From the UHGV virus genome UHGV-1351333: 64,000 bases of DNA. One strand, written 5' to 3'. Both the position numbers and the translations under genes were made by a program. Shown here piece by piece: positions 9,789 through 58,451 of the stretch. The first letter of the stretch is position 1, and each line of letters starts with the position of its first letter. The stretch is from a virus. Below the pieces are notes generated by a model. It was given only the letters and a program-made list of their open reading frames with translations, was not told the DNA's origin and made no database searches.

Positions 9789-9812
9789 AAATTTGCAATG
9801 ATTGCAAATTTT
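9789..9812. repeat. palindromic motif copy 2
   Basis: aaatttgcaatgattgcaaatttt between 9758 and 9802. Confidence 0.85.
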
Positions 9813-11314: not shown

Positions 11315-11341
11315 CCATTTCATTTTTCTTCCTTTTTTCTC

Positions 11342-12067
11342 ATGTCGCAGGATGACCCGTTTGCCCAGCCGCCGGAAGAGGAACCCTGTAGGCCGGGAGG
11401 CGTCACGCAAATCTGGATAGGCGGGGAACATACCATACCGCGGGAAATGCGGGAATGGATGGCCGGGGTACGGGCCTACTGTAGCCGGTTCGACCTTCCG
11501 TACCGCTGTTTGAACGGGAGGCAATGCAAGGCTTTGCTGGCCGAGTTCGGCATTCCGTTTAATGAGACCGGGGGCATCATGTCCCTGACCGACATGGCGC
11601 GGGTCTGCGCCCTGAAAAAATGGGGCGGCTGGTACCTGGACACGGATGTGAAAATCCAATGCCCGGCGGCCTTTCACGACTGGTCGGCTTCCGTTTGCGA
11701 ACGGGAGCCTTCAACCGTGTTTTATAACGCCATCACTTTCGGCTGGATGTACAATCACGGGGTGCTTTACGCCTCCGGGGACGATTCCTGCCTGTTCCTT
11801 ACCGCAATGTTGGACGCGTGCAGAAAAACCTACGGGACAGTGCATGCCTCCGATTCCGGGTGGGGGCTGGAAAGCACCGTCCAGAATATGGTGCATTATG
11901 ACCGTCAATGGGTAGGCTGGCATCAGGGCCTGCCAAAGCGCGTTTGCGATTCCGGCAATCCGACAAGCATGATTAACCATGTGCTTTACGGCACCTGGTA
12001 CGACAGCTCGCACATGGTTCCCGGCATCAAGGACGCGGAGACGTATTCACGGGTTTCCGATTTGTAG
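11342..12067 (+). CDS. glycosyltransferase, GT32-like (DxD sugar-binding region)
   Basis: KKWGGWYLDTDV matches the GT32/Och1-type GG(I/W)Y(L/I)D(T/L)D motif. Confidence 0.55.
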   Translation: MSQDDPFAQPPEEEPCRPGGVTQIWIGGEHTIPREMREWMAGVRAYCSRFDLPYRCLNGRQCKALLAEFGIPFNETGGIMSLTDMARVCALKKWGGWYLDTDVKIQCPAAFHDWSASVCEREPSTVFYNAITFGWMYNHGVLYASGDDSCLFLTAMLDACRKTYGTVHASDSGWGLESTVQNMVHYDRQWVGWHQGLPKRVCDSGNPTSMINHVLYGTWYDSSHMVPGIKDAETYSRVSDL

Positions 12068-12116
12068 CCCAAAATAATTTTTTACAAAAATAAAAAACGG
12101 CGATAGCATAGGCGCC

Positions 12117-12968
12117 ATGCCACGCGAAAAAATCATCATTGCCGTGTGCGGCATTCCTGATACCGGAAAAAGCACCTTTATCGTCAATGCGGCGAAACAC
12201 TTAAATGGCATGGAAGTCCAGCCGGACGCCCTGTGCGTCGAGCAGCAGACCGGGAAAACCATTGCAACCTCGTTCATCACCACCTGGGGCGAACAATGGG
12301 AGCGGGACGGGAAAACCTGCGATCTGGTTTTTGTGGACTGTCCCGGCCACATGCAGTTCCTTCCGGAAATCGTCGCCGGGTTGGCCGCGGCCCATGCCTA
12401 TATTGTCATTCATGACGCTTCCCGCATTGAGGCGAGCAAGGCCTATGCCCGGATGCTGAATGGCATTGCGGGCATGCTTGGCGTGCCGGAACTCGCGGAG
12501 CTTTACAGCCATTGCGACGATACCGGCGAATGCTGCTACAATGTGGGGATTGACAACCGGCTTCCGGGAATCGCCGAAAGAATCATCAAGCGTGCCCTGG
12601 CGGGAGGCAGGGATAAGCTGGTCCATCCCACGGCGTCCTGGCTTGGCTACATCCGGCAGGAACCGTCCGACACGCCGGATGTACGGCATAAAGTGTCCGT
12701 TGTCTGGCTTCCCTCCGCTTCCCGGCTCACTCCGGTTTCCAGGCTTCAGGCGAGGCTTCCTGACAGAACGGTCGAACTTGGGGCGGCGGAATCCGTAATC
12801 GGTTCCATTCCCGGCGAAAAAGACTTTCAGGGCGCCCCGGTGCAGCAAATCAATCTGAACTTTCCCGTCCGGTATCTGGACCCCGTGCGCTGCCTGATTT
12901 ACAGTCCGGAGCTTGGAACGGTCGGAGTCGGAACAGTAAACACATGGAAAACTCAGGCGCTATGGTAA
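12117..12968 (+). CDS. EF-Tu/CysN-like GTPase domain (candidate sulfate adenylyltransferase subunit 1 partner)
   Basis: G1 AVCGIPDTGKST and G3 VDCPGH, as in EF-Tu and CysN (DTPGH). Only the G-domain is present (283 aa) and the G4 NKxD looks degenerate. Location between cysD and cysC supports the assignment. Confidence 0.55.
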   Translation: MPREKIIIAVCGIPDTGKSTFIVNAAKHLNGMEVQPDALCVEQQTGKTIATSFITTWGEQWERDGKTCDLVFVDCPGHMQFLPEIVAGLAAAHAYIVIHDASRIEASKAYARMLNGIAGMLGVPELAELYSHCDDTGECCYNVGIDNRLPGIAERIIKRALAGGRDKLVHPTASWLGYIRQEPSDTPDVRHKVSVVWLPSASRLTPVSRLQARLPDRTVELGAAESVIGSIPGEKDFQGAPVQQINLNFPVRYLDPVRCLIYSPELGTVGVGTVNTWKTQALW

Positions 12969-40359: not shown

Positions 40360-40728
40360 TCAGGCCCATATTACGTTTCCGGATTCATCAATATCTACGG
40401 CTTTTTTGTGCGCCAGCCGAGCTTCATTTAATTTCCGGGAGTCCCGGATAACGTCGCCGGTTTCCGGGTATTCCTTGAATACGTTAATATAATTCAATAA
40501 ACGTTCCTTGTCGGAATATACCACGGCCGCATTTACAACATAGAACTTCCCTTTATCATCGTACCGACGGATAACGCTCGTATCCGTGGCGCAACGCCAT
40601 GTGTCAAAGTCGCGGGTAATATAAACGCGCTCATGCGCTCTAAGCCATATCATTGTTTCCCTGGCGATAAACTCCGGAACAAGAGTAAAGAGCTGCTCTT
40701 TTGTTAAAGTAGTATTGCTTATAATCAT
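40360..40728 (-). CDS. hypothetical protein (minus-strand cassette)
   Basis: 122-aa ORF driven by promoter 40783..40811 (-). Confidence 0.45.
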   Translation of the reverse strand: MIISNTTLTKEQLFTLVPEFIARETMIWLRAHERVYITRDFDTWRCATDTSVIRRYDDKGKFYVVNAAVVYSDKERLLNYINVFKEYPETGDVIRDSRKLNEARLAHKKAVDIDESGNVIWA

Positions 40729-40762
40729 ATTGACCCGTGGGGTTTCTTAATGAGAAGGTTTT

Positions 40763-40821
40763 TCCCTCCCTTTGATGAGAACAATTTAACACTATATTTT
40801 AAAAATTGCAAGAGAAAAAAG
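40763..40821. repeat. 59-bp promoter-containing direct repeat, copy 1
   Basis: tccctccctttgatgagaacaatttaacactatattttaaaaattgcaagagaaaaaag, about 85% identical to 41997..42055. Confidence 0.75.
40783..40811 (-). promoter_or_regulatory. sigma70-like promoter on minus strand (TTGCAA-N17-TAAATT)
   Basis: Minus-strand read: ctcTTGCAAtttttaaaatatagtgtTAAATTg. Lies inside the 59-bp repeat 40763..40821. Confidence 0.5.
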
Positions 40822-41033
40822 CATAAAAATGATTTTTTATTACATCAAATCAATCGGCAGCAAATAATACGCGCATTTAATCAGCACGATGCCCGCCAGC
40901 CAGTTAAGAACCGCCATAACCGGCATTCGGTGCTTGATGCAGGAAAAAGTGCAAAGCATCATTTGAGCGCCAAGAATCGTTATGGCCCCGGAAATTAAAA
41001 ATTGCAAAAACATCGATTGGCGGTCAGCGCGTG

Positions 41034-41366
41034 CTAACGTCTTGAAACTTTTATCGCGGAAGGCTCGTATCGGTACACTATTTCCTCGAAACGCTTTTCA
41101 GCATCCGCCAGGGTAGTAAGCGTCCAGCCATAAGTTCCCCAGGAATTGGGGCCCGGAAGATACTCGTCGCCAATCTGGTGGAACTTCGTAGGGGACGTGA
41201 CCGTTTGAACCCGCATAACTTCATAGCTGATTTGTCCGTGTTTTTCCTGCTCATATATAACCACATTTCCCTGCCTTCGGATTAAACGATAATTAAACCC
41301 GTATTTCCGGAACTCGGATTTAATTTTTCTTGATGGCGAAGTTATCGGCTTATCTTCCATGCTCAT
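41034..41366 (-). CDS. hypothetical protein
   Basis: 110-aa ORF. Confidence 0.45.
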   Translation of the reverse strand: MSMEDKPITSPSRKIKSEFRKYGFNYRLIRRQGNVVIYEQEKHGQISYEVMRVQTVTSPTKFHQIGDEYLPGPNSWGTYGWTLTTLADAEKRFEEIVYRYEPSAIKVSRR

Positions 41367-41394
41367 ATTATTTTTTTATTAAAAAAATTGTAGT

Positions 41395-41616
41395 TTAACT
41401 CCTAAACTTGCGCCTCACCCGGCGCATTTTCAGCTCCGAAGAAACAGAAGGAGTATTTGACGCTTTTCGCAGTTCCAGCAACTGGTCCACAGTGCGCTGT
41501 AGAGCAATTATGCCTTTCTCCAATTCCACTTTATTTATCCGGTAATTATCCGCAATCCAGTCTATATTTCTGGACAGGTTGTGCCGGTGTGCGTCTATGT
41601 CCTGCCGCGGCTCCAT
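41395..41616 (-). CDS. hypothetical protein
   Basis: 73-aa ORF. Confidence 0.4.
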   Translation of the reverse strand: MEPRQDIDAHRHNLSRNIDWIADNYRINKVELEKGIIALQRTVDQLLELRKASNTPSVSSELKMRRVRRKFRS

Positions 41617-41642
41617 ACATTTATTATTAACTTTTATCCTCA

Positions 41643-41663
41643 GGGGGGGTAATTCCCCCCCCC
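41643..41663. other. G7-TAATT-C9 homopolymer hairpin between minus-strand genes
   Basis: cagggggggtaattccccccccc. A G-run/C-run inverted repeat is unusual in this genome. Confidence 0.5.
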
Positions 41664-41679
41664 TCCCTGGAAGCAGGAA

Positions 41680-41955
41680 TTAACGCAGATTAAAGATGAA
41701 CTCGTAGCCGCTGGAATACCGGTCAATATCTACGGATTCCACATCCATGCAGGTCATATCCCGCACAAGCTGTTTCAAATGGCGCAGGGCTTTTCCGCAG
41801 CGGGAATCGTCTTCAATATCCTTGGGGTCCAGTTTTACCATTATTGAAGTTTGAGAGATAAGAGAAGCGCTGCGTACTTCGCTGCTGCAAAAATACTTTT
41901 GAAAGTATTTATTGATTTCTGAAACTCCGTTTTGCAGTGTGGTTTTAGTATTCAT
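41680..41955 (-). CDS. hypothetical protein
   Basis: 91-aa ORF, first gene after promoter 42017..42045 (-). Confidence 0.4.
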   Translation of the reverse strand: MNTKTTLQNGVSEINKYFQKYFCSSEVRSASLISQTSIMVKLDPKDIEDDSRCGKALRHLKQLVRDMTCMDVESVDIDRYSSGYEFIFNLR

Positions 41956-41996: not shown

Positions 41997-42055
41997 TTCC
42001 TCCCTTTGATGAATGTAATTTAACACTATATCTTAAGAATTGCAAGAGAAAAAAG
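41997..42055. repeat. 59-bp promoter-containing direct repeat, copy 2
   Basis: ttcctccctttgatgaatgtaatttaacactatatcttaagaattgcaagagaaaaaag. Confidence 0.75.
42017..42045 (-). promoter_or_regulatory. sigma70-like promoter on minus strand (TTGCAA-N17-TAAATT)
   Basis: Inside the 59-bp repeat 41997..42055, near-identical to the promoter at 40783..40811. Confidence 0.5.
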
Positions 42056-42070
42056 AGTTTTTCACGAAAA

Positions 42071-42092
42071 AAATTTGCAATCGTTGCAAATT
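42071..42092. repeat. palindromic motif copy 9
   Basis: aaatttgcaatcgttgcaaatt between the minus-strand cassette and GT25 gene 1. Confidence 0.85.
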
Positions 42093-42143: not shown

Positions 42144-43196
42144 ATGATAACCTTAAACCATCTTGGAATATCCCACGCGGTCATCATTGCCTTGCCGGAA
42201 CGCGCTGAACACGTCGCCCGCCTGAAAAACTCCATGGCCTCCGGGGGCATTGACCCGGAAAACAGCGTTACCCTGCTTCCCGCCTGGAACGGTCGAGAGC
42301 TGTTTCCTCCGAAAAGCTGGAAAGGGACCCGCGGCGCCTGGGGCTGTGTGCAGTCCCATATCCGGGCCTTGCGGCTTGCGGTTAAAAATAATTGGGAGTC
42401 AGTGCTCATCCTAGAGGATGACGCCCTGTTTTGCCGCAACGCCGCCGCCAGATTGCAGACGCTTTTTTCCGCGCTGCCGAAAGACTGGCGCCTGCTCTAT
42501 CTCGGAGGGCATCACCAAAACTGGCCGAAGGAGGTCCACGCGGATTATATCCTGGCCTCCGGCATGACGGCCACTCATGCTTATATCGTCAAACGGGAAT
42601 CTATCCCGTGGCTTATTAAGCACATCGCCTATTATCCCGACTACGAACAGCAGCAATGGGGAGTTGACCAGCAAATCCGGAACGCCGTTTACCGGGGCGA
42701 CATCCTCCAATACGCCCCGCGCTGGAATATCGTAGGACAGCAGCGGCAGGAATACAGCACCATTGCCCATTCCAGGGCCGGGAACCGGGAGCGCTGGTGG
42801 GAGCATTCTCAAAATGACCAGTTCCGCCTGCTTCCGCTTCTGCTGCTGCGGGAGCCGCTAACCGTGGAGGACGTTGACGGGCTTGAGGAACTGGTGGACG
42901 TCGCCCCCGAAAAAAGCGTCGAATGCCTTTTGGAGAAAACAGAAGATATGGCCGGCGCCATCATTGAGGCGCTTTCCTGCAGCGCGCGGGGGGCATTCAG
43001 CCATCGGCGCGTCCCTGCCCTGTACTATACTGACCGTAAAGCCGCGGACAGGTGCGCCCGCCTATGGTCCGCGGAATGCCTGTTTGCTGATGTTGACGAT
43101 TCCGAACAAACCAGGAAATCGCTTATTGCCGCCCTGCGCCGCATTGTCGACTATGCGGAAAATCCGGACATGAACCCGGACGTGAACAATGATTAA
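42144..43196 (+). CDS. glycosyltransferase, GT25-like (LPS/LOS glycosyltransferase family)
   Basis: GAWGCVQSHIRAL and VLILEDDALF match the GT25 signatures G(E/A)xGC(F/L)LSH and (I/L)LEDD. ATG 42144 preferred, because the ORF-track start (TTG 42075) lies inside the palindromic motif. Confidence 0.6.
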   Translation: MITLNHLGISHAVIIALPERAEHVARLKNSMASGGIDPENSVTLLPAWNGRELFPPKSWKGTRGAWGCVQSHIRALRLAVKNNWESVLILEDDALFCRNAAARLQTLFSALPKDWRLLYLGGHHQNWPKEVHADYILASGMTATHAYIVKRESIPWLIKHIAYYPDYEQQQWGVDQQIRNAVYRGDILQYAPRWNIVGQQRQEYSTIAHSRAGNRERWWEHSQNDQFRLLPLLLLREPLTVEDVDGLEELVDVAPEKSVECLLEKTEDMAGAIIEALSCSARGAFSHRRVPALYYTDRKAADRCARLWSAECLFADVDDSEQTRKSLIAALRRIVDYAENPDMNPDVNND

Positions 43197-44256
43197 CTTT
43201 CTTCGCTACACTGCTATGGATTATTTATTTCCGCATTATTTCGACCGGATTGTCGTCATCAACCTTACTAAAAACCCCGAACGGTTTGCCCGCATTGCCG
43301 ATGAATTGAAGTATAAATGCCTGGCGGGGCCTGATGATATTGTCAGGCATGAAGCCGTGCACGGGGATTCCATGCCGCATCCGGCGTGGTACAGGGCCGG
43401 AAACGGGGCGTGGGGGTGCTTGTCCAGCCATATCGAGGCGCTGGAAGACGCCTGGAACACCGGAAGCGAGCACACGCTGATTATCGAGGACGATGCCGTA
43501 TTCGCCAATGACCTTTTGACGCGGTTCCCGGAAACCATGAAGGAAGTTCCGAAAGAATACGGGCAGTTGTACCTTGGGGGACAGCACCAGCAGGCCCCGG
43601 AGGCCCTCAGCGATACTTTGTGGCGCGGCACGTCTGTCAATCGGACGCATTGCTACGCCGTTACCCGGAAGTTCATTCCGGAGATTCTCGCCCATATCAT
43701 GGATTGGGATACCCATATCAAGGCTGCCGGAAACCCGCTCCACATCGACCACACGCTGGAAATCGGGCATCAGCGCAGATACTGGCCCGTATTTTGCCCC
43801 CGGTTCTGGTTTGCCGGTCAGGGGGAAAACCAATCTGACATCAACGGCAGGCCCCAGCGGGAAATGTGGTGGGAGTACTCCGTGAAACAACAGCATTTAG
43901 AGCTTCCTTTGCTTGTGTTACGGACCGCCGACATGCCGGAACACGTTAAAGACCTGGCGTTTGTCGGCTGGCCGTCGGATTTGGACGCCCGCGGCGTCAA
44001 CAGGAAAATCGAAGAGGCTAAAAAAGACAAGGCTACCCTGTTGCGGGAAATCAGCTGGCTGGCGTATGTAGGATTCCAGCACCACAGCCTTCCGGCGGTT
44101 TATCTTCCGGAGCCGGAACCGGTTTCCGCATTGCAGCGCCTGTGGTCCGGTGAGGTTATCGACACGGCGCATGCGGATGATGCGGATATCCACCGGATGC
44201 GCCGCATCCTGGAATTCGCCGATAATCCGGAAATGCTGAAATATAGATTCCGGTAG
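43189..44256 (+). CDS. glycosyltransferase, GT25-like (paralogue of 42144..43196)
   Basis: GAWGCLSSHIEAL and TLIIEDDAVF. Aligns along its length with the upstream paralogue. Confidence 0.6.
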   Translation: MINFLRYTAMDYLFPHYFDRIVVINLTKNPERFARIADELKYKCLAGPDDIVRHEAVHGDSMPHPAWYRAGNGAWGCLSSHIEALEDAWNTGSEHTLIIEDDAVFANDLLTRFPETMKEVPKEYGQLYLGGQHQQAPEALSDTLWRGTSVNRTHCYAVTRKFIPEILAHIMDWDTHIKAAGNPLHIDHTLEIGHQRRYWPVFCPRFWFAGQGENQSDINGRPQREMWWEYSVKQQHLELPLLVLRTADMPEHVKDLAFVGWPSDLDARGVNRKIEEAKKDKATLLREISWLAYVGFQHHSLPAVYLPEPEPVSALQRLWSGEVIDTAHADDADIHRMRRILEFADNPEMLKYRFR

Positions 44257-44257
44257 A

Positions 44258-44902
44258 TTGACGGTTTTTTCCGGCGCAAGTATCATGGCAGGCATGAAAC
44301 GATTACGTTTGATGCCTGTTTTTTTTATTATTGCCGGATGCGCCCAGCAGAATCAGGCGCCGTCCATTACAACGCCGGTTCCGGAGCCGGTCGTAGAAAA
44401 AACAGTCGTCCGGCCTGTGGCGGCGTCAACGGTCGAATGCGCGGCTACCGTTAAGGATGCGGCCAATGCCGTGCAGAACAGCATTACGGCCATCGTCTCC
44501 ACGATACGGCAGGCGGAAACCGCCGCGCAAGAACAGCAAATCCCCGGCTGGGCAACATGGCTGTCCGAACTGGCGAATCAGGCCGGAAACGCGGATAAGC
44601 AGGCTGCCGTGCTGATGGACCGCTCTGACAATATGACCAAAAAAGCAGCCGCCTTGTCCGAAACGTGCGAGCAGCTGGCGGAAGAACGGGACACGGCAGT
44701 TAAAGCCGCGCAGGAATCCAGGGACGCGGCAGCGGCAATCAAGGCGGAAGCCGCGGAAGTCAAAGCCGATGCCCAGGCCCGCCTGTCCTCCATGACGGAT
44801 GAGCGTTCCTGGTGGCGGAAATGCGCTTTATGCACCTGGGCCGGCATAGCTGTTTTTTGTCTGGCGTGGCTCGGAATCCGACTGGCGAGGGCTGCCGGAT
44901 AA
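44258..44902 (+). CDS. lipoprotein with C-terminal TM helix (unimolecular spanin candidate)
   Basis: Lipobox at MKRLRLMPVFFIIAGC (ATG 44294), Ala/Gln-rich coiled-coil middle, and C-terminal TM CALCTWAGIAVFCLAWLGI. Sits in the lysis region. Confidence 0.4.
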   Translation: MTVFSGASIMAGMKRLRLMPVFFIIAGCAQQNQAPSITTPVPEPVVEKTVVRPVAASTVECAATVKDAANAVQNSITAIVSTIRQAETAAQEQQIPGWATWLSELANQAGNADKQAAVLMDRSDNMTKKAAALSETCEQLAEERDTAVKAAQESRDAAAAIKAEAAEVKADAQARLSSMTDERSWWRKCALCTWAGIAVFCLAWLGIRLARAAG

Positions 44903-44916
44903 CAAAAATTTTCCTC

Positions 44917-44936
44917 AATTTGCAATCATTGCAAAC
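44917..44936. repeat. palindromic motif copy 10
   Basis: caatttgcaatcattgcaaa after 44902. Preceded by ttcctc, as in copy 15. Confidence 0.85.
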
Positions 44937-44955
44937 CGGAAAAACCGGAGATTCA

Positions 44956-44983
44956 GGACCGTAATCCTACGGTCTTTTTTATT
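44956..44983 (+). terminator. rho-independent terminator
   Basis: ggaccgta-atcc-tacggtc followed by TTTTTTATTT. Confidence 0.65.
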
Positions 44984-44989
44984 TGTCAA

Positions 44990-45430
44990 TACTGTTTTTT
45001 ACGCTTTTATAACTTATTAAACCTCATACAGTTATAAATAATATGCACTGAGAAATCGCTAGTTTATTCATTTGTTATTCACTATTAACGAGTTATAAAT
45101 AATTTGCACTTTTGAAAGTTCAGGGCATTCATAAGTATTTGCGTATCAGGCAGTTATAAACGCGATAAACCTGGAAAAACACGCTAAATTCTCATTTTAC
45201 GTAAATATAACCGGCTAAGCTTCATGCAGTTATAGATATTATGCCCTTTCACCGAAGTGCATTTATTTTGTAAATTACTGAAAGTGAAAGGGTTATAACT
45301 GCGGCCAAAGCGCGGAAACCTCAATTTTTGCCTTTATAAGTGGCTGAACTGCATTTAGTTATAAATAATTTGCACTCTGAGAGTGCATTAATATAAATAT
45401 ATAATAATATTCGTTCCTCATATTATTATA
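44990..45430. repeat. AT-rich non-coding region with iterons AGTTATAAATAAT(A/T)TGCACT
   Basis: Full copies near 45029, 45090 and 45357. Partial copies near 45151, 45227 and 45291. Palindrome TGCACTCTGAGAGTGCA at about 45371..45388. Composition contrasts sharply with the GC-rich genome. Confidence 0.6.
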
Positions 45431-45575
45431 CATTTACATTTCCCGTCCTGACCTAAAGGTCAGTACGTCGCCTGGGCTGTTCCGCCCAGGCACTCTGGGA
45501 CAGGGACAGAGAGAGGGTTCCAGCCTGTGAAATTTCCGCTACTGTTCCGGCGGATTTCATGTTACGGTTCCGGAG

Positions 45576-45926
45576 ATGAAAAACCTTCCGCAAATCATCA
45601 AGGACAGTTGGCGCGATATTATCGCTTTTTTGTTCATCGGAATTTTCCTTTCCGTCGGGGTGGAATATCTGATTCGGCTTTCGGTCATCATGGATGTTAC
45701 CGGGGCAGCTTCCTTCATCGCCTTGTTGCAGGGCTTCACCAAGTTTGCCGGGGCCAATCTCTGCGCATGGCTGCTGGGAGCCAATGTGGCCTTCCCGTAT
45801 ATTTCCCGTTGGGCCAGATTCGACTTCAATGCGACCTGGCGCACGATGGAGGGGTTCCGGAAAGTCCAATGCTTCCTCGCGGTTGCCATCGGGGAATTGC
45901 TCATGGCCGCCATCTGCTTTGCCTGA
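45576..45926 (+). CDS. holin-like membrane protein
   Basis: 116 aa with two to three hydrophobic helices. Immediately upstream of the endolysin. Confidence 0.4.
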   Translation: MKNLPQIIKDSWRDIIAFLFIGIFLSVGVEYLIRLSVIMDVTGAASFIALLQGFTKFAGANLCAWLLGANVAFPYISRWARFDFNATWRTMEGFRKVQCFLAVAIGELLMAAICFA

Positions 45927-45935
45927 TACCGCCCC

Positions 45936-46628
45936 ATGAACGGTCAGAGTTTAATTGGTTTGGCCCTTGCGACCCTGTCCGCGTTTTTCGCCTGCGGGGA
46001 TATGCCGGCTTCCGGTCTGGTCCTAAGTGACCGGGCCGTAGATATGATTATCCGGTACGAGACCGGAGGGAAGGCGTACTACGTGAAAAAGCTCGTTCGG
46101 CCTACATGGCCCGGAGGGGATAGCGGAGTGACCATCGGCATTGGTTACGACTTGGGATATTACTCGTCGGCGCAAATCCGTTCCGACTGGTCCTCCCTGC
46201 CGGAAAAAGACCTCCGGCTGCTCTGCACCGTAGCCGGATTGAAGCGTCAGGCCGCCCGTGCGTCTGTTAGCCGGGTGCGGTCTGTCACGGTTCCGTGGGA
46301 GTTGGCGTTGGACGTGTACCGAAAAAAGACGATTCCCGCCTATGCGTCCACGACTAAAACTGCGTTTCAGGGGCTGACCTTAACTCATCCCCATGTGCAG
46401 GGGGCTATGGTGTCTTTGGTGTATAATCGGGGCGCTTCCATGTCAGGGGCCAGCCGGAAAGAGATGCGGGACTGCCGGGATGACATTAAAGCCGGGCAGG
46501 TGAAGCGGGTTCCCGCCCATATCCGAAGCATGAAACGGCTTTGGATTGGGAAGGGCCTGAATGGGCTGTTAATCCGCCGGGAAGAAGAAGCCTGCCTGGT
46601 TGAACTGGGGCTGAAAGAAAAAAATTGA
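45936..46628 (+). CDS. endolysin, lysozyme-like, with N-terminal signal/SAR segment
   Basis: Hydrophobic N-terminus LIGLALATLSAFFACG. IRYETGG...VTIGIGYDLG is reminiscent of the T4-lysozyme-type catalytic E...D...T region. Confidence 0.45.
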   Translation: MNGQSLIGLALATLSAFFACGDMPASGLVLSDRAVDMIIRYETGGKAYYVKKLVRPTWPGGDSGVTIGIGYDLGYYSSAQIRSDWSSLPEKDLRLLCTVAGLKRQAARASVSRVRSVTVPWELALDVYRKKTIPAYASTTKTAFQGLTLTHPHVQGAMVSLVYNRGASMSGASRKEMRDCRDDIKAGQVKRVPAHIRSMKRLWIGKGLNGLLIRREEEACLVELGLKEKN

Positions 46629-46637
46629 TAAAATGTC

Positions 46638-46666
46638 TTGCAATTTTTTTGTGTTGTGGGTATAGT
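46638..46666 (+). promoter_or_regulatory. sigma70-like promoter (TTGCAA-N17-TATAGT)
   Basis: gtcTTGCAAtttttttgtgttgtgggTATAGTt. Confidence 0.5.
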
Positions 46667-46672
46667 TTTCTC

Positions 46673-46882
46673 ATGCCTTACGATAAACACACGTTAGAAC
46701 TTACTCTGGAAGAGCTTACGATGTTTGCCTCGAAGAATCCGAACTCTGATGCCGGATTTGTCGAAGCGTTGAATGTGGTTCGTGATTTTCAGCGTCAAGG
46801 GAAGCCTGTGGTTATTCTCTGGCCCAGCCGGAAGCCGGTGGAGGTCCATGAGAGGGTCGAAAGGCGCCAAGAAGCGGAATAA
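46673..46882 (+). CDS. hypothetical small protein
   Basis: ATG 46673 about 7 nt after the -10 element. In ORF-track frame 46625..46882. Confidence 0.3.
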   Translation: MPYDKHTLELTLEELTMFASKNPNSDAGFVEALNVVRDFQRQGKPVVILWPSRKPVEVHERVERRQEAE

Positions 46883-46886
46883 TCGA

Positions 46887-46910
46887 AAATTTGCAATCAT
46901 TGCAAATTTT
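46887..46910. repeat. palindromic motif copy 11
   Basis: aaaatttgcaatcattgcaaatttt upstream of the AAA ATPase gene. Confidence 0.85.
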
Positions 46911-46939
46911 CATAATCCATAGCTATCGAGGGATACATC

Positions 46940-48613
46940 ATGACATCACAAGAAAAATACATTCAAAAATTGGACGACATGTTCGCCAGCGCGGTGAGTG
47001 TCGTATTTACGCCAAGCCGTGAACCGCGCAGAACTGTAGAGGCTGTCAAGGCAATGGGGGCGCGGGACAATGTGCCGGTGTTCGTCTGGAACGATGTGTA
47101 CGGCTGGAAAGTTTTTACCGGACAGGACCGTACCGTAGGAGTTCCGGTTGACGCGGATTCCCCGGTAGGCAATTTTTATCAGGCGTTGCGCCGCATCCTG
47201 GGATTTAAAATCGGGGAAAACACCAGTAACGCGTCTTCTCGGTTTGATTATGAAAAAGGCGCGGCATATATCGTCATGGAGGGCACTAGCCCGCATCTTG
47301 GTTTGCTTCCAATGACGACAACGCTTCTCAAGGATTACGCCTATTCCTTCCCGGAAACGCTCATGAGCCTTGTGTTGATTACGTCGGAATCCTACACCAT
47401 TCCGGAAGAGCTGGCCCACGACATTCTGGTTGTGGATTTTGACCTGCCGACAAAAACCGACTTGCGCCACGCATGGGAAAGCACCGTAGTCAATCAGTAC
47501 GAGTCCAAGAACCTTCCGATTCCCGAAACCTATATTCCGGGGGACAGCGTGGATGCGCTGGTCAATGCAGCATCCGGCATGACGATTCTGGAAGCGGAAA
47601 CTGCGTATTCAAGGGCTTTTACCCTCAATGACCGCCTGTTCCCGGATATTCCCGTTGAAAACCTTCTCGCGCAGGTCCACCGCTCGAAGGAAGACATTGT
47701 GAAAAAGTCACAGACACTGGAAATGGTTAACCCCATTCCGGTTGATTCCATCGGCGGCCTGGAATTGCTGAAAGACTGGTTTATCACGCGGTCGGTATGT
47801 TTCAGCGAAGAGGCCCGCAAGGCGAAAGTTGATGCGCCTAAAGGCGTAGCCCTTATCGGGCCGCCTGGAACGGGTAAGTCGGTATGCTCCAAGGCGGTGG
47901 CATCCATTCTCAATCTTCCCCTCGTGCGGGTGGATTTGGGGCGGCTGTTCGGGTCTCTTATCGGTCAGACGGAAGCCCGCACCCGGACCATGTTGAAGGA
48001 ATTGGAAGCTATGGCCCCCTGCATTGTCTGGGTGGACGAAGTTGACAAGGCGGGCTTGTCTTCCGGGGCTAATGGAGATTCCGGCGTATCTTCCCGCCTG
48101 CTGGGTTCTCTGCTGACCCACATGTCGGAAAATGAGTCTGGCTTGTTCTGGATTTTCACCGCCAACCGGACGGAGAATCTGCCGTCGGAATTCTTGCGGA
48201 AGGGGCGGCTGGATGAAGTCTTTTCCGTTCTGCCTCCGACTTGGGCCGAACGCCGCCAGATTTTTGACATCCACTTGAGCAAGCGCGGAATCAATATTGA
48301 TGATATTGCCGACTTTGACCAGGTGCTGACGGAAAGCCGGGGATTCGTATCTGCGGAAATTGAAGCCGCGTGCAAGGAAGCGAAAGTGCTTTCTTTTTAT
48401 CGGAACGTTCCGGTTACGAGCAGCCTTTTGCGGTCCACCCTTAAAGGCATCATTCCAATTTCGGAAGCGTACAAAGACCAGTTTGACGCTATGACCGAGT
48501 GGGCGCAGAATAACGCGAGGCCGTCTTCCGAGCAAGAGGTTGACGTTGATGCTTCCAGCCCGCTTCCGTCCAGCATTCCGGAATCGTTGCGTGCCCGCCG
48601 CCGCAGGCATTGA
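46940..48613 (+). CDS. AAA+ ATPase (classical AAA clade) with unknown N-terminal domain
   Basis: Walker A GPPGTGKS, Walker B IVWVDEVDK, second region of homology FTANRTENLPSEFLRKGRLDEV. About 300 aa N-terminal to the ATPase are unassigned. Confidence 0.8.
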   Translation: MTSQEKYIQKLDDMFASAVSVVFTPSREPRRTVEAVKAMGARDNVPVFVWNDVYGWKVFTGQDRTVGVPVDADSPVGNFYQALRRILGFKIGENTSNASSRFDYEKGAAYIVMEGTSPHLGLLPMTTTLLKDYAYSFPETLMSLVLITSESYTIPEELAHDILVVDFDLPTKTDLRHAWESTVVNQYESKNLPIPETYIPGDSVDALVNAASGMTILEAETAYSRAFTLNDRLFPDIPVENLLAQVHRSKEDIVKKSQTLEMVNPIPVDSIGGLELLKDWFITRSVCFSEEARKAKVDAPKGVALIGPPGTGKSVCSKAVASILNLPLVRVDLGRLFGSLIGQTEARTRTMLKELEAMAPCIVWVDEVDKAGLSSGANGDSGVSSRLLGSLLTHMSENESGLFWIFTANRTENLPSEFLRKGRLDEVFSVLPPTWAERRQIFDIHLSKRGINIDDIADFDQVLTESRGFVSAEIEAACKEAKVLSFYRNVPVTSSLLRSTLKGIIPISEAYKDQFDAMTEWAQNNARPSSEQEVDVDASSPLPSSIPESLRARRRRH

Positions 48614-48656
48614 TTAGCGTGGTGATTTTTTATCCTGCATTTTTTCAATATTTGTC

Positions 48657-48685
48657 TTGCAATTCTTAAATTAAAAGGGTATATT
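48657..48685 (+). promoter_or_regulatory. sigma70-like promoter (TTGCAA-N17-TATATT), possibly leaderless
   Basis: gtcTTGCAAttcttaaattaaaagggTATATTactgacATG. The ATG at 48692 lies only about 7 nt past the -10 element. Confidence 0.5.
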
Positions 48686-48691
48686 ACTGAC

Positions 48692-49333
48692 ATGAGCAAT
48701 GATTTAAGCACTCTTGATACCGTCACCGGGGAAATGCAGACGCTGGTGAATGGGTATGTTAAAGTGATTTTATTCAAGGTTCAGCTTCCGGGGCCGGGAA
48801 CGCTGTACAAGGAAGATGGCATTTTCCGCAACAACGTTCCGGGCGTGAACCGCATCGGGTTCCCTGGGTCTATCGCCTCCCTGCAAAATGGGAGGCCGGA
48901 AGTGTGCGGAACGGTTTTTTCCGGGAAGTACAGCCTGACCCCAGGTTCTTTCCTTAAAATTTTTGTCAAGGCGCATCGGCGCAGGTCATTTCCGGAATCG
49001 GCCAGCCTGTTCATCAGGATGCGCCCTTCGGCCGCCTTGCGGCGTATCACTGTTTCCTGCCCGGAAGACCCTAAAGCCACCATTTCCGAGTTCAGCATTA
49101 CCGGACGCTTCGACCTGGTAAAACCCATTGAGGCCATTGCCGCCGGGTGTAGAATCCCTGAGCAGTTCAAGCTTGGGTACGCTCCCACAGTGGTAAACCG
49201 TTTGATGCGGTTTAGCGTTCTGTCTCCGGAAACAGCCACCCGGACCGTAGTCCGCACGGCTTCCGGGGAAGAAAAAGAAGTCATTGTCGCCAAGAGGCGG
49301 CGGCGTTTGGGCGGGGTACGTTCCCACTCCTGA
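48692..49333 (+). CDS. hypothetical protein
   Basis: 213-aa ORF with a basic C-terminus. Confidence 0.45.
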   Translation: MSNDLSTLDTVTGEMQTLVNGYVKVILFKVQLPGPGTLYKEDGIFRNNVPGVNRIGFPGSIASLQNGRPEVCGTVFSGKYSLTPGSFLKIFVKAHRRRSFPESASLFIRMRPSAALRRITVSCPEDPKATISEFSITGRFDLVKPIEAIAAGCRIPEQFKLGYAPTVVNRLMRFSVLSPETATRTVVRTASGEEKEVIVAKRRRRLGGVRSHS

Positions 49334-49371
49334 AAAAAATCTCTCTCATTATCACCAACAAAAAATAAACC

Positions 49372-49857
49372 ATGAGCCATACAACCAAAGTCAAATCCGT
49401 AGTTATCCGGGACGTCCGGGCCATTCGCGCCGCTGTGCAGGAACTCCAACGCGAGGGGCGGAAAATCGCCCTGAAAGAAAACGCCGTTCCGCGGATGTAT
49501 TACAAGGACCAGTTCCAGTCGAGCACCAAACGCCAGCAGGCGGAATTCGTCATCGAATGTCAGGGAATGTCCGTCAGTACTGGAAAACCGTGTGACGTGG
49601 GCCTGGTCAAGCAGGACGACGGGACGTTCATTCCGTATCTCGATACGTGGGGCGGGTACGTCAAAGAGCATTGCGGGAATCCGAAACTGACTGCCGGAAA
49701 CGGCCTTACGGATTCGGATATTGCCATTGCCGCTTTTTCCCAGGCGTATTCCAAACATGCGGCTATTTTCGCGGCAACCGACCAGGGCTATACTGTCCAG
49801 GACTGTTATCTTGACTCCGCGGGCAACGTGCAGTTGACCGTAGCCACCGGATTTTAA
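49372..49857 (+). CDS. hypothetical protein (possibly DUF1257-like)
   Basis: 161 aa. The family assignment is a weak recollection of AAA-ATPase/DUF1257/DUF2997 gene neighbourhoods. Confidence 0.4.
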   Translation: MSHTTKVKSVVIRDVRAIRAAVQELQREGRKIALKENAVPRMYYKDQFQSSTKRQQAEFVIECQGMSVSTGKPCDVGLVKQDDGTFIPYLDTWGGYVKEHCGNPKLTAGNGLTDSDIAIAAFSQAYSKHAAIFAATDQGYTVQDCYLDSAGNVQLTVATGF

Positions 49858-49862
49858 TTCTG

Positions 49863-49885
49863 AAATTTGCAACGATTACAAAAAT
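49863..49885. repeat. palindromic motif copy 12 (degenerate right arm)
   Basis: aaatttgcaacgattacaaaaat between 49857 and 49893. Confidence 0.7.
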
Positions 49886-49892
49886 CAAAAAC

Positions 49893-50096
49893 ATGGAGAC
49901 AATTCACATTACGATTGACCCGGCAGGCCGTCCGACCCTGAAAGGGGAAGGGTTCACCGGCACAAAATGCAACGACCGCATGAAGGCTATCGAGGACAAG
50001 CTCGGCGCCGGAAAGGGAGCTACGCGAACCGACCATCCGGAAATGTACGCGCCGGAAGAGACGACCAGCACGGAGCAGCCGATTCACATGTGGTAA
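49893..50096 (+). CDS. hypothetical small protein (possibly DUF2997-like)
   Basis: 67 aa: METIHITIDPAGRPTLKGEGFTGTKCNDRMKAIEDKLG. Confidence 0.35.
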   Translation: METIHITIDPAGRPTLKGEGFTGTKCNDRMKAIEDKLGAGKGATRTDHPEMYAPEETTSTEQPIHMW

Positions 50097-50116
50097 AAAA
50101 TCAAACTGTCATTGTT

Positions 50117-50437
50117 ATGAGCCAGCAAATCACCATTTATCCGGACGGCGGCATGGAATCGCTCAGGGTAGCTTCCGGGAACGGGCTGGACCTGCGGATG
50201 TTCGGAACCGTAGAAGCCCGGCGCGTGTCTGATATAGTTTTCGACGATGCGGCGCAGAAGTGGAAAATTGACATACTTGGGCAGGGCCTGCTGACCTTTT
50301 CCGAGTGGGCCAATGTGGCGAAAAAGCCTTTGCCGCACTTTGCGCGGCTGGCGGCGGACGGCGTGATTTTGCTGGCGGAATACGAACAGGCAGTTGACGT
50401 TGAAGTGCAGTATTTTAACGCCCGGAGGATTAAATGA
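50117..50437 (+). CDS. hypothetical protein
   Basis: ATG 50117 in ORF-track frame 49967..50437. Confidence 0.4.
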   Translation: MSQQITIYPDGGMESLRVASGNGLDLRMFGTVEARRVSDIVFDDAAQKWKIDILGQGLLTFSEWANVAKKPLPHFARLAADGVILLAEYEQAVDVEVQYFNARRIK

Positions 50438-50446
50438 GCAAAAAAA

Positions 50447-50480
50447 GACCCTCGACCAGCCGGAATCACTGGTCGAGGGC
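50447..50480. terminator. hairpin with A7 upstream (+ strand) / T7 downstream (- strand): minus-oriented or bidirectional terminator
   Basis: ccctcgaccag-ccggaatca-ctggtcgaggg is an 11-bp GC-rich stem. aaaaaaa precedes it on the + strand, so the intrinsic-terminator geometry is on the minus strand. Confidence 0.4.
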
Positions 50481-50526
50481 CTGATACAAGTTACGCTGAA
50501 AACACTTTAATCGTGCGCCGTGAATT

Positions 50527-51435
50527 GTGCCAAAATCTCATGTACAGTCAAGCGGAATTCAGGATTTTCACAAAATCTGGTGCTGGCTGTACCGAACGGT
50601 CCGCCCCGCGCTGGAAGCGGAATCCGTTACATTGTTTCCCGTGCTGGAATTTGTGTTCGACCGGACATTGGCCCGCGGAAAGCCCTGGGAAGTTATCAGG
50701 CTTTTTCAGTTTTCGCAAAATCTGGCGTTGCACCGGAACACTATTTCCCGGAATATCAAGCGGCTGGTTGCGCTGGGGCTTGTTCTTGCCCGGAGTCCGA
50801 AACATGGCCGGGCGGTTTATTCCATCAATTTAACCTGGACTGACACCGATATGATGAAAACACCGAAACGGGGCCGGACGGAAGCCCCTGTAATTCCCCT
50901 TTCCGAGATAGGCCGCATGGCGGCGGAAAAAGCGGCGGAAGCCAAAAAGAGAAAGCAGCGTAAATTGTCGTTTGACGCGGTTTCCGGTTTTTGGGCTTCT
51001 ACCGTCATAGATTTGCTGGGAAAAGACGCTTTTATTGCGCCGACGAAAACGAATTACATGACGTTATTCGCCTACGCGAAACGGTTTACGTCCGGGGACA
51101 AAACTTTTTCTGATTTTAAGGATTTTTTAACCTGGGCAATCGGCCGCTGGCAGCTTGTCATGCGAGATTCTTTCCGGTGGACAAAAAACACCGCCCCGAA
51201 AGTGCCGTCTATCGGCTGGCTGGTGAAATTTTCCGCTCAATTCGAGGAAGCTTATTTGCTTTATCTCAATCCGGTCGCGGGAAAAAACCTGTCTGCCGAC
51301 CCAGCGGCCAAACCGGAGAGCAGCCGCCCCCGAACGGTCAGACCGAAAACGGCAAAGCCTAAACCACAGCCGCCGAAACTCCTGAGGCCGTCAGGCGCCG
51401 AGGCCGGAATTGACGAGCTTCCGGAGTGGCGATAA
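50527..51435 (+). CDS. winged-HTH protein, candidate replication initiator
   Basis: WEVIRLFQFSQNLALHRNTISRNIKRLVALGLV is an HTH. Located at the head of the replication module. Confidence 0.4.
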   Translation: MPKSHVQSSGIQDFHKIWCWLYRTVRPALEAESVTLFPVLEFVFDRTLARGKPWEVIRLFQFSQNLALHRNTISRNIKRLVALGLVLARSPKHGRAVYSINLTWTDTDMMKTPKRGRTEAPVIPLSEIGRMAAEKAAEAKKRKQRKLSFDAVSGFWASTVIDLLGKDAFIAPTKTNYMTLFAYAKRFTSGDKTFSDFKDFLTWAIGRWQLVMRDSFRWTKNTAPKVPSIGWLVKFSAQFEEAYLLYLNPVAGKNLSADPAAKPESSRPRTVRPKTAKPKPQPPKLLRPSGAEAGIDELPEWR

Positions 51436-52022
51436 TCCTCTACTGCTTTTTCAAAAAAATGAATAACGCGATTTCCTGTGACGAAGTGGCCGCCGTGTTA
51501 CGGCGCAACGGCGTTCCGAGAATGTTTACCCGCCCTGGATATTCCGGGCTTTCGGACATTAAAAGCCGTCAGGCCAGCAATACGCGCGTATTGCTCCTTG
51601 ACCGCGTAGCCGGATGTTCGGCCGCCGCCCCATTGGTGCTGGAATTGTCCGGAGACGGAAAAACGCCGACGGAAATATTTTACGGGGCGATACGGGTGCT
51701 GGTCCTCCGGTACAGATTTTCGGTGTTGGCGTCGAACCCGGCAGACCTGCTTTCCCGCATTGAGTCGTATTTCGATTTTTTGAAGACGGACAAGTACCAT
51801 GTGCTGGCCTTATCTCCGCTGGTAGAGGACGACCGGACGGCGGGGTATCTTTCCCGGCCTGAGCTGTACCGGTTCGAGCGGTGCATTCAGAATTGGCTGT
51901 TGAGCGGAAGGCATCTTATCTTCAATGGGGCCAGACCGTTGAAAGATTCGGAAATGTTCAGCCGGGGCTTTATAAACTTTTTGACCAGTCAGGATAATTA
52001 CATTTTCGTTCCGGAGGATTGA
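51426..52022 (+). CDS. hypothetical protein (helicase-loader position)
   Basis: 198-aa ORF immediately upstream of the DnaB-like helicase. Confidence 0.35.
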   Translation: MAIILYCFFKKMNNAISCDEVAAVLRRNGVPRMFTRPGYSGLSDIKSRQASNTRVLLLDRVAGCSAAAPLVLELSGDGKTPTEIFYGAIRVLVLRYRFSVLASNPADLLSRIESYFDFLKTDKYHVLALSPLVEDDRTAGYLSRPELYRFERCIQNWLLSGRHLIFNGARPLKDSEMFSRGFINFLTSQDNYIFVPED

Positions 52023-56163: not shown

Positions 56164-56190
56164 AAATTTGCAATGATTGCAAATTTTTTT
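56164..56190. repeat. palindromic motif copy 13 (+T7, followed by cgtgaa and promoter)
   Basis: aaatttgcaatgattgcaaattttttt after the polA stop. The extended context matches copy 14. Confidence 0.85.
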
Positions 56191-56210
56191 CGTGAACAGG
56201 ATTTTTTATC

Positions 56211-56239
56211 TTGCAATTTCCATTTTTTAGTGATATAAA
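56211..56239 (+). promoter_or_regulatory. sigma70-like promoter (TTGCAA-N17-TATAAA)
   Basis: atcTTGCAAtttccattttttagtgaTATAAAa. Confidence 0.5.
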
Positions 56240-58295: not shown

Positions 58296-58321
58296 AATTT
58301 GCAACGATTGCAAATTTTTTT
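58296..58321. repeat. palindromic motif copy 14 (+T7, followed by cgtgaa and promoter)
   Basis: aatttgcaacgattgcaaattttttt after the RNase H stop. Confidence 0.85.
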
Positions 58322-58342
58322 CGTGAAAAACTCTTTTTTATC

Positions 58343-58371
58343 TTGCAATTTATAAAAAACAATGCTAAATT
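58343..58371 (+). promoter_or_regulatory. sigma70-like promoter (TTGCAA-N17-TAAATT) feeding the 55-bp leader
   Basis: atcTTGCAAtttataaaaaacaatgcTAAATTac. The predicted TSS (~58378) coincides with the start of the leader repeat at 58375. Confidence 0.5.
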
Positions 58372-58374
58372 ACA

Positions 58375-58429
58375 TTCATCAAAGGGAAGGAAAAACCTTC
58401 CCGCACAGCTAAAAAACCTGAAAGTTAAA
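58375..58429 (+). repeat. 55-bp leader repeat copy B
   Basis: Identical to 1..55. Lies between promoter 58343..58371 and gene 58452..58784. Confidence 0.8.
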
Positions 58430-58451
58430 TTAAAAAAAGGAACTAAAAAAA

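Follow-up and report, generated by a model that had tools for sequence, protein, structure and literature searches.

What does an A/T-rich, repeat-bearing island do between two putative lysis genes of a phage? In the 64,000-nt stretch of virus genome UHGV-1351333 analysed here (the window), such an island lies between the stop codon of a spanin-like gene (44902) and the ATG of a holin-like gene (45576). It is the genome's largest non-coding region, the most A/T-rich and the only repeat-rich one, with a GC content (300-bp windows) of 0.31 at 44900-45300 and 0.35-0.38 up to 45500, compared to 0.53-0.62 in the flanks and a mean of about 0.53. An initial annotation had correctly picked out the A/T-rich stretch, although its description of the surrounding genome as GC-rich overstated a moderate 53%. 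No credible coding was found in the gap, where the sole open reading frame (ORF; 46 amino acids (aa), TTG start, minus strand) falls within the least conserved part. We conclude that the island is a genuine control region, non-coding and restricted to this lineage, and on its sequence features we tentatively favor a promoter or operator array followed by a structured leader for the downstream holin-like and lysozyme-like genes.

The island contains the 20-mer AGTTATAAATAATWTGCACT in three exact copies and one 17/20 copy, all on the plus strand, together with two partial copies and several inverted half copies (Table 1), in keeping with the three full and at least three partial copies originally noted. 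The 20-mer does not recur elsewhere in the window, where 0 copies are expected from 100 shuffles, nor, at up to 4 mismatches, elsewhere in the near-complete ~84.5-kb pseudo-genome that we built from the window, L045 and L046. IMG/VR held no exact match, and the 17-mer core matched only this phage there, apart from 13 single matches that correspond to about the chance expectation. A blastn search of 43000-48000 against 50,697 phage records matched the ATPase gene only. The true repeat is longer than the 20-mer, comprising a unit of ~53 nt of which four copies share 60-74% identity; five units can be placed in register on GCAC with the common plan (t)ATAAsT-N16-GTTATAAA-TAATwT-GCACT. Five or six such units (U1-U6) run head to tail, all in the direction of transcription. 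Their start-to-start spacings of 61, 61, 76, 64, and 65 bp (5.8, 5.8, 7.2, 6.1, and 6.2 helical turns) therefore identify 44990-45376 as a decayed head-to-tail array of a ~63-bp unit. Tandem Repeats Finder reported no array in the island and nothing beyond an 8-nt A/T microrepeat. Both strands carry TGCAC half sites, and five of the eight WTGCACT matches in the window lie in the island.

The array is bounded upstream by a terminator, T1, and is followed downstream by sequence that folds as RNA. In a terminator scan, T1 combined a GC-containing stem-loop with a T-run at a gene end, and it is 91% identical between the two clades described below, versus about 70% at neutral sites; T1 ends the upstream transcription unit of the family-25 glycosyltransferase (GT25) and spanin-like genes. 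A second, terminator-like hairpin and T-run (T2) closes U4, and forms in clade B a perfect 7-bp stem, TGCACTT-GCGCGG-AAGTGCA, with GAAGTGCATTTATTTT invariant. The internal palindrome and the two adjacent GC hairpins before the holin-like gene had been recognized at the outset and are both present, and all features listed in that annotation occur where it placed them and well above chance expectation; T1, T2, and an all-A/T hairpin are additions to that description. The palindrome, a 17-bp dyad whose seventh pair changes from C-G to U-G between haplotypes, is either an operator-like site or a hairpin at an RNA 5′ end. Across nine distinct haplotypes, effectively two clades, the four hairpins and a long-range helix are 96.8% paired, with two-sided changes in four pairs compared to 0-1 in slid-partner controls. 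Two of the compensated pairs belong to the all-A/T hairpin and two to the first GC hairpin (CTGACC-TAAA-GGTCAG at 45448-45463, extending to 45444-45467), and the second GC hairpin (GCCTGGGC-TGTTCC-GCCCAGGC at 45470-45491) keeps its stem unchanged throughout, with a single change in the loop of some haplotypes. The long-range helix over the holin-like start codon retains nine pairs in every haplotype, three of them G-U, and shows one change from U-G to U-A. Thus 45390-45578 retains its pairing through compensatory or G-U changes, as a structured plus-strand RNA leader should. G-U pairs occur in helices 1 and 5, and several pairs switch between C-G and U-G; since G-U pairs form only in plus-strand RNA, the downstream hairpins appear to act as such. 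Covariation of this type also implies rightward transcription of the region, beginning somewhere 5′ of about 45390.

The island occupies the same place, in collinear arrangement, in 22 of the 22 related contigs examined (IMG/VR, JGI, ENA, and Logan). These comprise a rarer clade A (the window, L024, L028, and L029) and a commoner clade B (the remaining contigs), between which the island is about 79% identical and the ATPase protein 99-100%. Divergence between the clades is strongly mosaic across 43189-52022: identity at fourfold sites is 0.69-0.74 in the left flank and gene 49372 (GT25, spanin-like, and gene 49372), 0.91 in the holin-like gene, 0.81 in the lysozyme-like gene, and 0.96-0.98 further right (ATPase and gene 48692). 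Recombination breakpoints lie near both island ends, and the most diverged replication proteins are an O-like initiator (87% aa identity) and the product of the next gene (77-80%). Within the island, identity is 0.91 for T1, 0.80-0.81 for U1, U2, and U6 (U1, 0.80), 0.82-0.83 for the hairpins, and 0.65-0.72 for U3, U4, and U5 (U3, 0.72; U4, 0.65), which places U1 and U2 modestly above the neutral level of the left flank and U3-U5 at that level.

Clade B preserves the upstream block and TAAnTT-GCAC rather than the full 20-mer, of which it matches 14/20 positions in U1 (reading GGTTGCAAATAGTATGCACC) and about 11/20 in U4. The confinement of exact 20-mers to the rarer clade A suggests recent homogenization. 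In clade B, U1 reads TTGAGC-N16-TAGTAT-GCAC, and U6 reads TTGAAC-N16-AAATTT-GCACT with an invariant upstream block, TCAATTTTTG..TTTATAAGT. U2 offers TTGTTA-N16-TATAAA in clade A and both TTGTCA-N16-TAYAAA and TTGAGT-N16-TAATTT in clade B, and the U2 region 45093-45131 is nearly invariant. Invariant runs in the island reach 15-18 nt, which we estimate to be borderline after multiple testing. More distant relatives, namely HJ05, L338C, and 13 IMG/VR contigs with ATPases 29-42% identical, have no comparable A/T drop or repeats; at the same late-to-replication boundary, Aeromonas phage HJ05 carries a terminator and then TTGCAA-N16-TAATAT. One clade A contig is itself unusual. Positions 528-1858 of L024 (OLOW01011963.1, 3710 bp) correspond to window 44890-46221 at 98.7% identity and span the island, the holin-like gene, and the 5′ portion of the lysozyme-like gene; on either side lie Bacteroides-like glycoside-hydrolase genes, 74-77% identical to genes of Bacteroides metagenome-assembled genomes. 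Either the assembly is chimeric or a phage fragment has been captured; the GTDB genomes retrieved contain no phage/Bacteroides junction of this kind.

How might these parts work together? The 5′ two thirds of the island (44990-45376) arose by tandem duplication of the ~63-bp unit, each unit being one promoter-like module in which an A/T-rich upstream block (tATAAsT) precedes a –35-like hexamer, a spacer of 16 nt with GTTATAAA at its end, a –10-like TAATwT, and a start region, GCACT. Of these modules, U1, U2, and U6 appear to be in working order; U3, U4, and U5 have decayed. Host RNA polymerase would start rightward transcripts at the units, possibly helped or blocked by a protein at the TGCAC dyads. 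Most transcription from U1 and U2 would end at the hairpin and T-run of T2, at about 45270, and transcripts from U6 would enter the ~200-nt structured leader, with its A/U hairpin, two GC hairpins, and the helix hiding the holin-like start codon. The leader would in turn set the amount and timing of holin and lysozyme. Promoter activity, start sites, any regulator, and an effect on lysis timing are what we infer from this anatomy. Consistent with such an arrangement, all units share one orientation, their spacing is at least 61 bp, and the array directly follows the conserved T1, where the late unit (tail genes, glycosyltransferase morons, and the spanin-like gene) ends; the holin-like and lysozyme-like genes start downstream. 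A bipartite unit of 53 nt would also be about the size of the region contacted by RNA polymerase. The terminator and promoter-like sequence at the corresponding boundary of HJ05, the plus-strand RNA structure of the leader, and the helix over the holin-like start codon likewise speak for promoters and a leader. In clade B, TTGAGC, TTGAGT, TTGAGT, and TTGAAC stand exactly 16 nt 5′ of the TAAnTT position in U1, U2, U3, and U6, and the sequences at that position in U1, U2, and U6 are TAGTAT, TAATTT, and AAATTT. Clade A has poorer –35-like hexamers and a perfect TATAAATAAT. The clades may thus have taken two routes to the same architecture, a difference that a promoter would tolerate and an iteron would not. 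The higher identity of U1, U2, and U6 relative to U3-U5 also points to constraint, albeit weak and by a modest margin.

Several observations weigh against a promoter array. A strict scan returned a single island site, CTGAGA-N17-TATAAT at 45377-45405, no more than in shuffled sequence, and the promoter consensus of the host may be a different one. The A/T-rich 20-mer allows three different –10 registers, and the best-kept part of clade A, GTTATAAA, falls in the spacer, which RNA polymerase reads little. The clear sigma-70-type promoters of this phage have the form TTGCAA-N17-TAnnnT, which does not occur in the island, and it is odd that a promoter class should be found at one locus only and yet in several copies. 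Because the units share ancestry, motifs in register are not independent observations. The neutral yardstick is uneven, clade divergence being mosaic, and the right flank is less diverged, such that the identity of U6 and the hairpins (0.81-0.83) is not evidence of constraint. Finally, covariation in the leader is thin, as essentially two clades yield few events.

A strong sigma-70-type promoter, TTGCAA-N17-TATAGT, lies at 46638-46673, at the end of the lysozyme-like gene, and is probably the real start of the ATPase and replication operon. Its predicted start falls on the ATG of a 69-aa ORF (46673), such that the mRNA may be leaderless. Since this promoter stands just 5′ of the small ORF preceding the ATPase gene, the replication genes do not need the island, which would then serve the holin-like and lysozyme-like genes only.

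The initial annotation had proposed either late lysis control or a replication origin; neither has been refuted, and each has gained some support. We consider an origin possible but unlikely, and partly compatible with promoters in the array, as it could be transcription-primed. An initiator, such as the O-like protein encoded at 50527 or a factor of the host, would be bound by the 20-mers or TGCAC dyads; melting would take place in the 50-bp all-A/T tract at 45388-45440, where DnaB, primase, and PolA would load for bidirectional replication; in a variant that accords with the promoter array, U6 fires into the unwinding element and its transcript primes DNA synthesis. Skew, third-codon, and duplex-stability results favor an origin near the island. 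On the pseudo-genome, detrended cumulative GC skew reaches its minimum at 43,299, with a plateau at 43-46 kb, and its maximum at 82,108; the extremes are roughly opposite and their signs fit an origin at the minimum. Third codon positions show the same turn at 33-46 kb. The cumulative-skew check suggested in the annotation located a minimum near the island, but the turn is broad and both extremes fall near borders between replication and packaging or structural blocks, making a gene-class effect possible. The least stable 40- and 60-bp duplex of the genome is 45382-45430, a candidate adjacent A/T-rich unwinding element, and at the scale of 400 bp, too, stability is lowest in the island. Confinement of the repeat motif to one locus is what would be expected of a single cis-acting site, and the lambda origin shows a similar succession of dyad, A/T tract, and GC-rich palindromes. 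Among the genes of the phage are those for an O-like initiator, DnaB, primase, PolA, and RNase H, and there is no better array near the initiator gene, where repeats are weak and not kept in clade B. Against this, the repeats designated as iterons exist, but not in the classical form: iteron arrays typically consist of three or more direct repeats of about 17-22 bp, contiguous at about 20-33 bp, and those of the island are 61-76 bp apart and not helically phased. DnaA boxes (TTWTNCACA) number 3 in the 64-kb window versus 4.2 expected, with none in the island, whose WTGCACT consistently departs from the box at its two end positions. The gene for the O-like initiator does not adjoin the repeats but lies 5 kb downstream, and clade B has lost the 20-mers even though the initiator recognition helix, HRNTISRNIKRL, is unchanged. 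Distant relatives with the same replication module have no such island, and G-U pairs in the hairpins point to a function in RNA, not DNA. An origin inside the O-like gene (50524-50730) was rejected, as the pattern is not enriched, its second copy has diverged in clade B, and local conservation is unexceptional; TTTTCRCAAAATCTGG occurs twice at the 5′ end of that gene, 145 bp apart and in different reading frames, with a weaker third copy 40 bp upstream. A terminator hairpin 5′ of the O-like gene, at 50446-50482, is a clear case of compensation, its clade B stem being wholly different (AGACCCTCGACCAG to CCCCCTGCCAGC type) and still pairing. The skew maximum at 82,108 coincides with the second least stable 40-mer (82,110; L046 6880-6940), at the end of a block of 37-40% GC that encodes a ParB_N-domain protein and a DNA methylase. 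Two sequences, the 11-mer ACATTTACATT and the motif AATAAT...ATTCGT(T)CC, are common to this spot and the A/T hairpin of the island. A highly improbable synthesis would have the island couple replication to lysis: transcription from U6 would turn the most readily melting tract of the genome into a transcription-primed origin, the RNA so produced would also be the leader of the holin-like and lysozyme-like genes, and the TGCAC sites would be weak half-site variants of a palindrome found genome-wide (see below), so that origin activity and the level of one phage DNA-binding protein would together set lysis-gene output as a built-in lysis timer.

Much of the array could instead be functionless, a decaying tandem duplication or a foreign A/T-rich insertion in which only T1 and the leader hairpins matter. 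We regard this as improbable. U3, U4, and U5 evolve at the neutral rate, distant relatives manage without an island, its composition is far from the genome mean, and the apparent homogenization in the rarer clade points the same way; nevertheless, the island is collinear in every related contig examined, U1, U2, and U6 are somewhat above the left-flank neutral level (the invariant runs being borderline), and all five or six units keep one orientation. A related possibility raised in the initial annotation as a refutation, that the region is a remnant of a deleted gene, drew nothing from DNA searches, although the neutrally evolving segments allow for decay of part of the array. Quite improbable, too, is a binding array for a phage protein that is neither initiator nor polymerase, whether centromere-like, a titration sink, or a repressor array for the lysis genes. 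The tandem units of sopC each hold an inverted repeat, and each clade A unit here holds the inverted pair TTATAAC-N17-GTTATAA, in addition to the TGCAC half sites on both strands. The 3′ part AATTTGCAC is one base off the half site AATTTGCAA of the genome-wide palindrome, which the same or a related protein might read, and a ParB_N-domain protein is encoded elsewhere in the genome. Yet no ParA-type partner or lysogeny genes were seen in the genome, the inverted pairs are lost in U1 and U4 of clade B, and the gap between the TTATAAAT and GCACT modules is 0 nt in some places and 5 nt in others, a variation that is unsuited to one rigid protein. The least credible alternative is a small non-coding RNA of about 160-220 nt, running from U1 or U2 to T2 near 45270. 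Promoter-like U2 does precede the terminator-like hairpin and T-run on the same strand, and both ends are conserved (45093-45131 and 45254-45269), but the body (45160-45250) is about 35% diverged, as at neutral sites. A long-range fold of 45040-45285 lacked covariation support (covariation term +1.44, with many pairs broken), and Rfam gave no match at the gathering threshold in the window, its two island matches being at chance level (E about 1). Other identities were rejected outright. A CRISPR-like mini-array or solitary units, with repeats of at least 23 nt that are conserved from end to end and separated by unique spacers of like size, do not fit an exact repeat of only 20 nt with weakly similar flanks, decaying copies, and no Rfam CRISPR-DR match. 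The island motif AAATAATTT-GCAC-loop-GTGC-AT resembles the Cas12a repeat, AAUUUCUAC-loop-GUAGAU, a likeness dismissed on the same repeat length, a hairpin in U4 and U6 only, differing stem bases, and the lack of cas genes. ToxI-like repeats of type III toxin-antitoxin systems, nearly identical and contiguous at about 36-45 nt, do not agree with units 61-76 bp apart and about 60-74% alike, in which Tandem Repeats Finder saw no array. A genome terminus (cos or direct terminal repeat) is contradicted by full-length contigs of 82.5-84.6 kb, which end at scattered positions and all contain the island internally. None of the explanations proposed here would make the island a new kind of element.

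The surrounding genome gives the favored promoter array and leader their context. Nearly all window genes are on the plus strand, and family searches identified structural, replication, and glycosyltransferase genes (Table 1), together with accessory genes 5′ of the structural block (9802-12968) having sulfotransferase, PAPS-reductase-like, and EF-Tu-like GTPase domains (Pfam). The statement that the island splits a lysis cluster is plausible, albeit on weak annotation. The lysozyme-like match scores 20.9 bits against a Pfam cutoff of 22.3, with no sequence match among solved structures and none in NCBIfam, and the holin-like and spanin-like labels are based on membrane and lipoprotein features only. 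The holin-like protein had no match in family searches and is 97% identical (aa) in relatives. Shine-Dalgarno motifs are at background (11 of 63 genes, versus 14% of random positions); gene upstream regions are A-rich throughout the window, and the clear phage promoters are sigma-70-like, not of the Bacteroidota TAnnTTTG type. The scattered ends of complete contigs imply a circular or permuted genome map. No prophage copy was present among 185,579 species genomes; no tRNA, tmRNA, or attP beside a tRNA was found, and the Pfam matches for the remainder of the genome included no integrase. Among cultured phages, siphoviruses of Rhizobium, Aeromonas, and Pseudomonas come closest, with 35-40% ATPase identity, none exceeding about 40% protein identity. 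Membership of Flandersviridae was rejected, as the description does not fit: no tail sheath turned up, and the phage has a tape measure of 1056 aa.

Two repeated elements outside the array may bear on regulation in this phage. The 21-bp palindrome AATTTGCAA-NNN-TTGCAAATT has about 20 copies in the 84.5-kb genome versus 2.5 expected (at up to 3 mismatches), nearly all in gaps just upstream of plus-strand genes; the left flanks are T/C-rich and the right flanks often consist of 7-8 consecutive T. Conceivable roles of the palindrome are those of a sequence-conserved terminator, a promoter, or a regulator site. A cassette of ~110 bp, composed of the palindrome, a T-run, TTGCAA-N17-TAAATT, and the conserved leader CATCAAAGGGAGG(A)AAAACCTTCCC, occurs about seven times before small genes, in both orientations, and looks like a terminator-promoter-leader unit for accessory genes. 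Its repetition would account for the recurrent 14.1- and 16.2-kb contigs in public assemblies.

Table 1. Coordinates of features in and around the island (window positions, except where kb positions in the pseudo-genome are given)
Feature	Position	Strand	Remarks
U1	44997-45049	+	ATAACT-N16-GTTATAAA-TAATAT-GCACT; exact 20-mer at 45030-45049
U2	45058-45110	+	Exact 20-mer at 45091-45110; best sigma-70-like reading; best conserved unit
U3	45119-45171	+	Decayed; ATAAGT and AGTTATAAA (partial 20-mer, 45152) kept, TAATTT-GCACT lost
U4	45195-45247	+	17/20 copy of 20-mer at 45228-45247
U5	45292-45299	+	Remnant, GTTATAAC only (partial 20-mer, 45292)
U6	45324-45376	+	Exact 20-mer at 45357-45376; last unit before leader
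Inverted half copies of 20-mer	45006, 45333, 45256-45268, 45382-45394		
Terminator T1	44955-44985	+	9-bp stem, 4-nt loop, then TTTTTTATTT T-run; –11.5 kcal/mol, z –3.3
Terminator-like T2	45241-45270	+	TGCCCTT/AAGTGCA hairpin at U4 end, then TTTATTTT; –4.8 kcal/mol, z –2.9
17-bp dyad	45371-45387		TGCACTCTGAGAGTGCA (TGCACTC-TGA-GAGTGCA); overlaps U6 end; –9.2 kcal/mol, z –3.5
All-A/T hairpin	45394-45436	+	17-bp stem; z –4.3; two compensatory pairs
Two GC-rich hairpins	45444-45491	+	No T-run after; together –30.3 kcal/mol, z –6.6
Long-range helix	45491-45578	+	CACUCUGGGAC (45491-45501) with GGUUCCGGAG-AUG (45567-45578); covers holin-like start codon
Palindrome copy at island	44917-44937		Just after spanin-like stop codon; invariant in relatives
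Palindrome, window sites	3096, 9790, 15953, 19993, 22991, 27037, 33057, 37054, 42072, 44917, 46888, 49864, 56165, 58296, 63473		
Palindrome, pseudo-genome sites	about 67.3, 68.5, 73.0, 79.7, 84.4 kb		
Cassette, window sites	58296-58430; 42000-42092 (minus); 40765-40822 (minus); 1-58; 56165-56235		
Cassette, pseudo-genome sites	about 67.3, 68.5, 73.0, 84.4 kb		
Portal	17919		Family search
Protease	25553		Family search
Major capsid	27212		Family search
Tape measure	33871		1056 aa; family search
Few small genes	40360-41955	–	
Two GT25 genes	42075 and 43189		Family search
Spanin-like gene	44258-44902		Lipoprotein and C-terminal membrane anchor
Holin-like membrane protein gene	45576-45926	+	116 aa; several hydrophobic segments; first gene 3′ of island
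Lysozyme-like gene	45936		230 aa; matches just under curated cutoffs
AAA ATPase	46940		Family search
O-like initiator	50527-51435		302 aa; weak PF04492 (lambda O family) match; MarR-like helix-turn-helix
DnaB	52026		Family search
PolA	53315		Family search
RNase H	57561		Family search
Primase	59290		Family search
Helicase	61475		Family search

The island matters as the largest non-coding region of a highly prevalent phage about which little is known: a single variant of its ATPase protein is indexed in 592 blocks of a public assembly collection, making the phage very common in the human gut. Were the island an origin, it could be used to clone replicons and to follow replication activity in metagenomic coverage; were it a lysis control region, it would reveal how holin synthesis is timed in a phage that lacks Shine-Dalgarno sites. 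Either outcome would be useful, and neither would surprise a phage biologist.

Comparison with known systems places the island between several precedents. The lambda ori, with four O-binding repeats, an A/T tract, and a palindrome, and the plasmid iteron origins P1 oriR, R6K, and pSC101 share with it ~20-bp direct repeats, an adjacent very A/T-rich tract, and GC-rich palindromes beyond, in a genome that has an O-like initiator and a GC-skew minimum nearby. They differ in that the island repeats are widely spaced, unphased, away from the initiator gene, not conserved across clades, and unaccompanied by DnaA boxes. The origins ori(uvsY) and ori(34) of T4 consist of a promoter and a downstream unwinding element that forms an R-loop primer. 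Similarly, promoter-like U6 is followed at once by the ~50-bp easiest-melting tract, and the phage encodes RNase H, primase, and a replicative helicase; however, the island has no MotA-type middle promoter, and its tract also forms a hairpin conserved by compensatory changes. The lactococcal phages phi31, phi50, and sk1 have non-coding A/T-rich origins, used as 'per' elements, that were shown to replicate or to titrate replication factors. Like the island, they are non-coding and A/T-rich, lie at a module border, and contain dispersed direct and inverted repeats, although they have no sequence similarity to it. In T7, A1, A2, and A3 are tandem early promoters for host RNA polymerase. The island differs from them in its weak –35/–10 matches, in units unlike the phage's own TTGCAA-N17-TAnnnT promoters, and in that the first genes 3′ of it look like lysis genes rather than early genes. 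The likeness lies in several promoter-sized units of one orientation with A/T-rich upstream blocks, spaced in the range of 60-140 bp, within A/T-rich non-coding DNA at the start of a transcription unit. Lastly, the conserved helix CACUCUGGGAC/GGUUCCGGAG-AUG at the start region of the holin-like gene resembles translational control by leader RNA helices that mask a ribosome-binding region, although most genes of this phage are without Shine-Dalgarno sequences.

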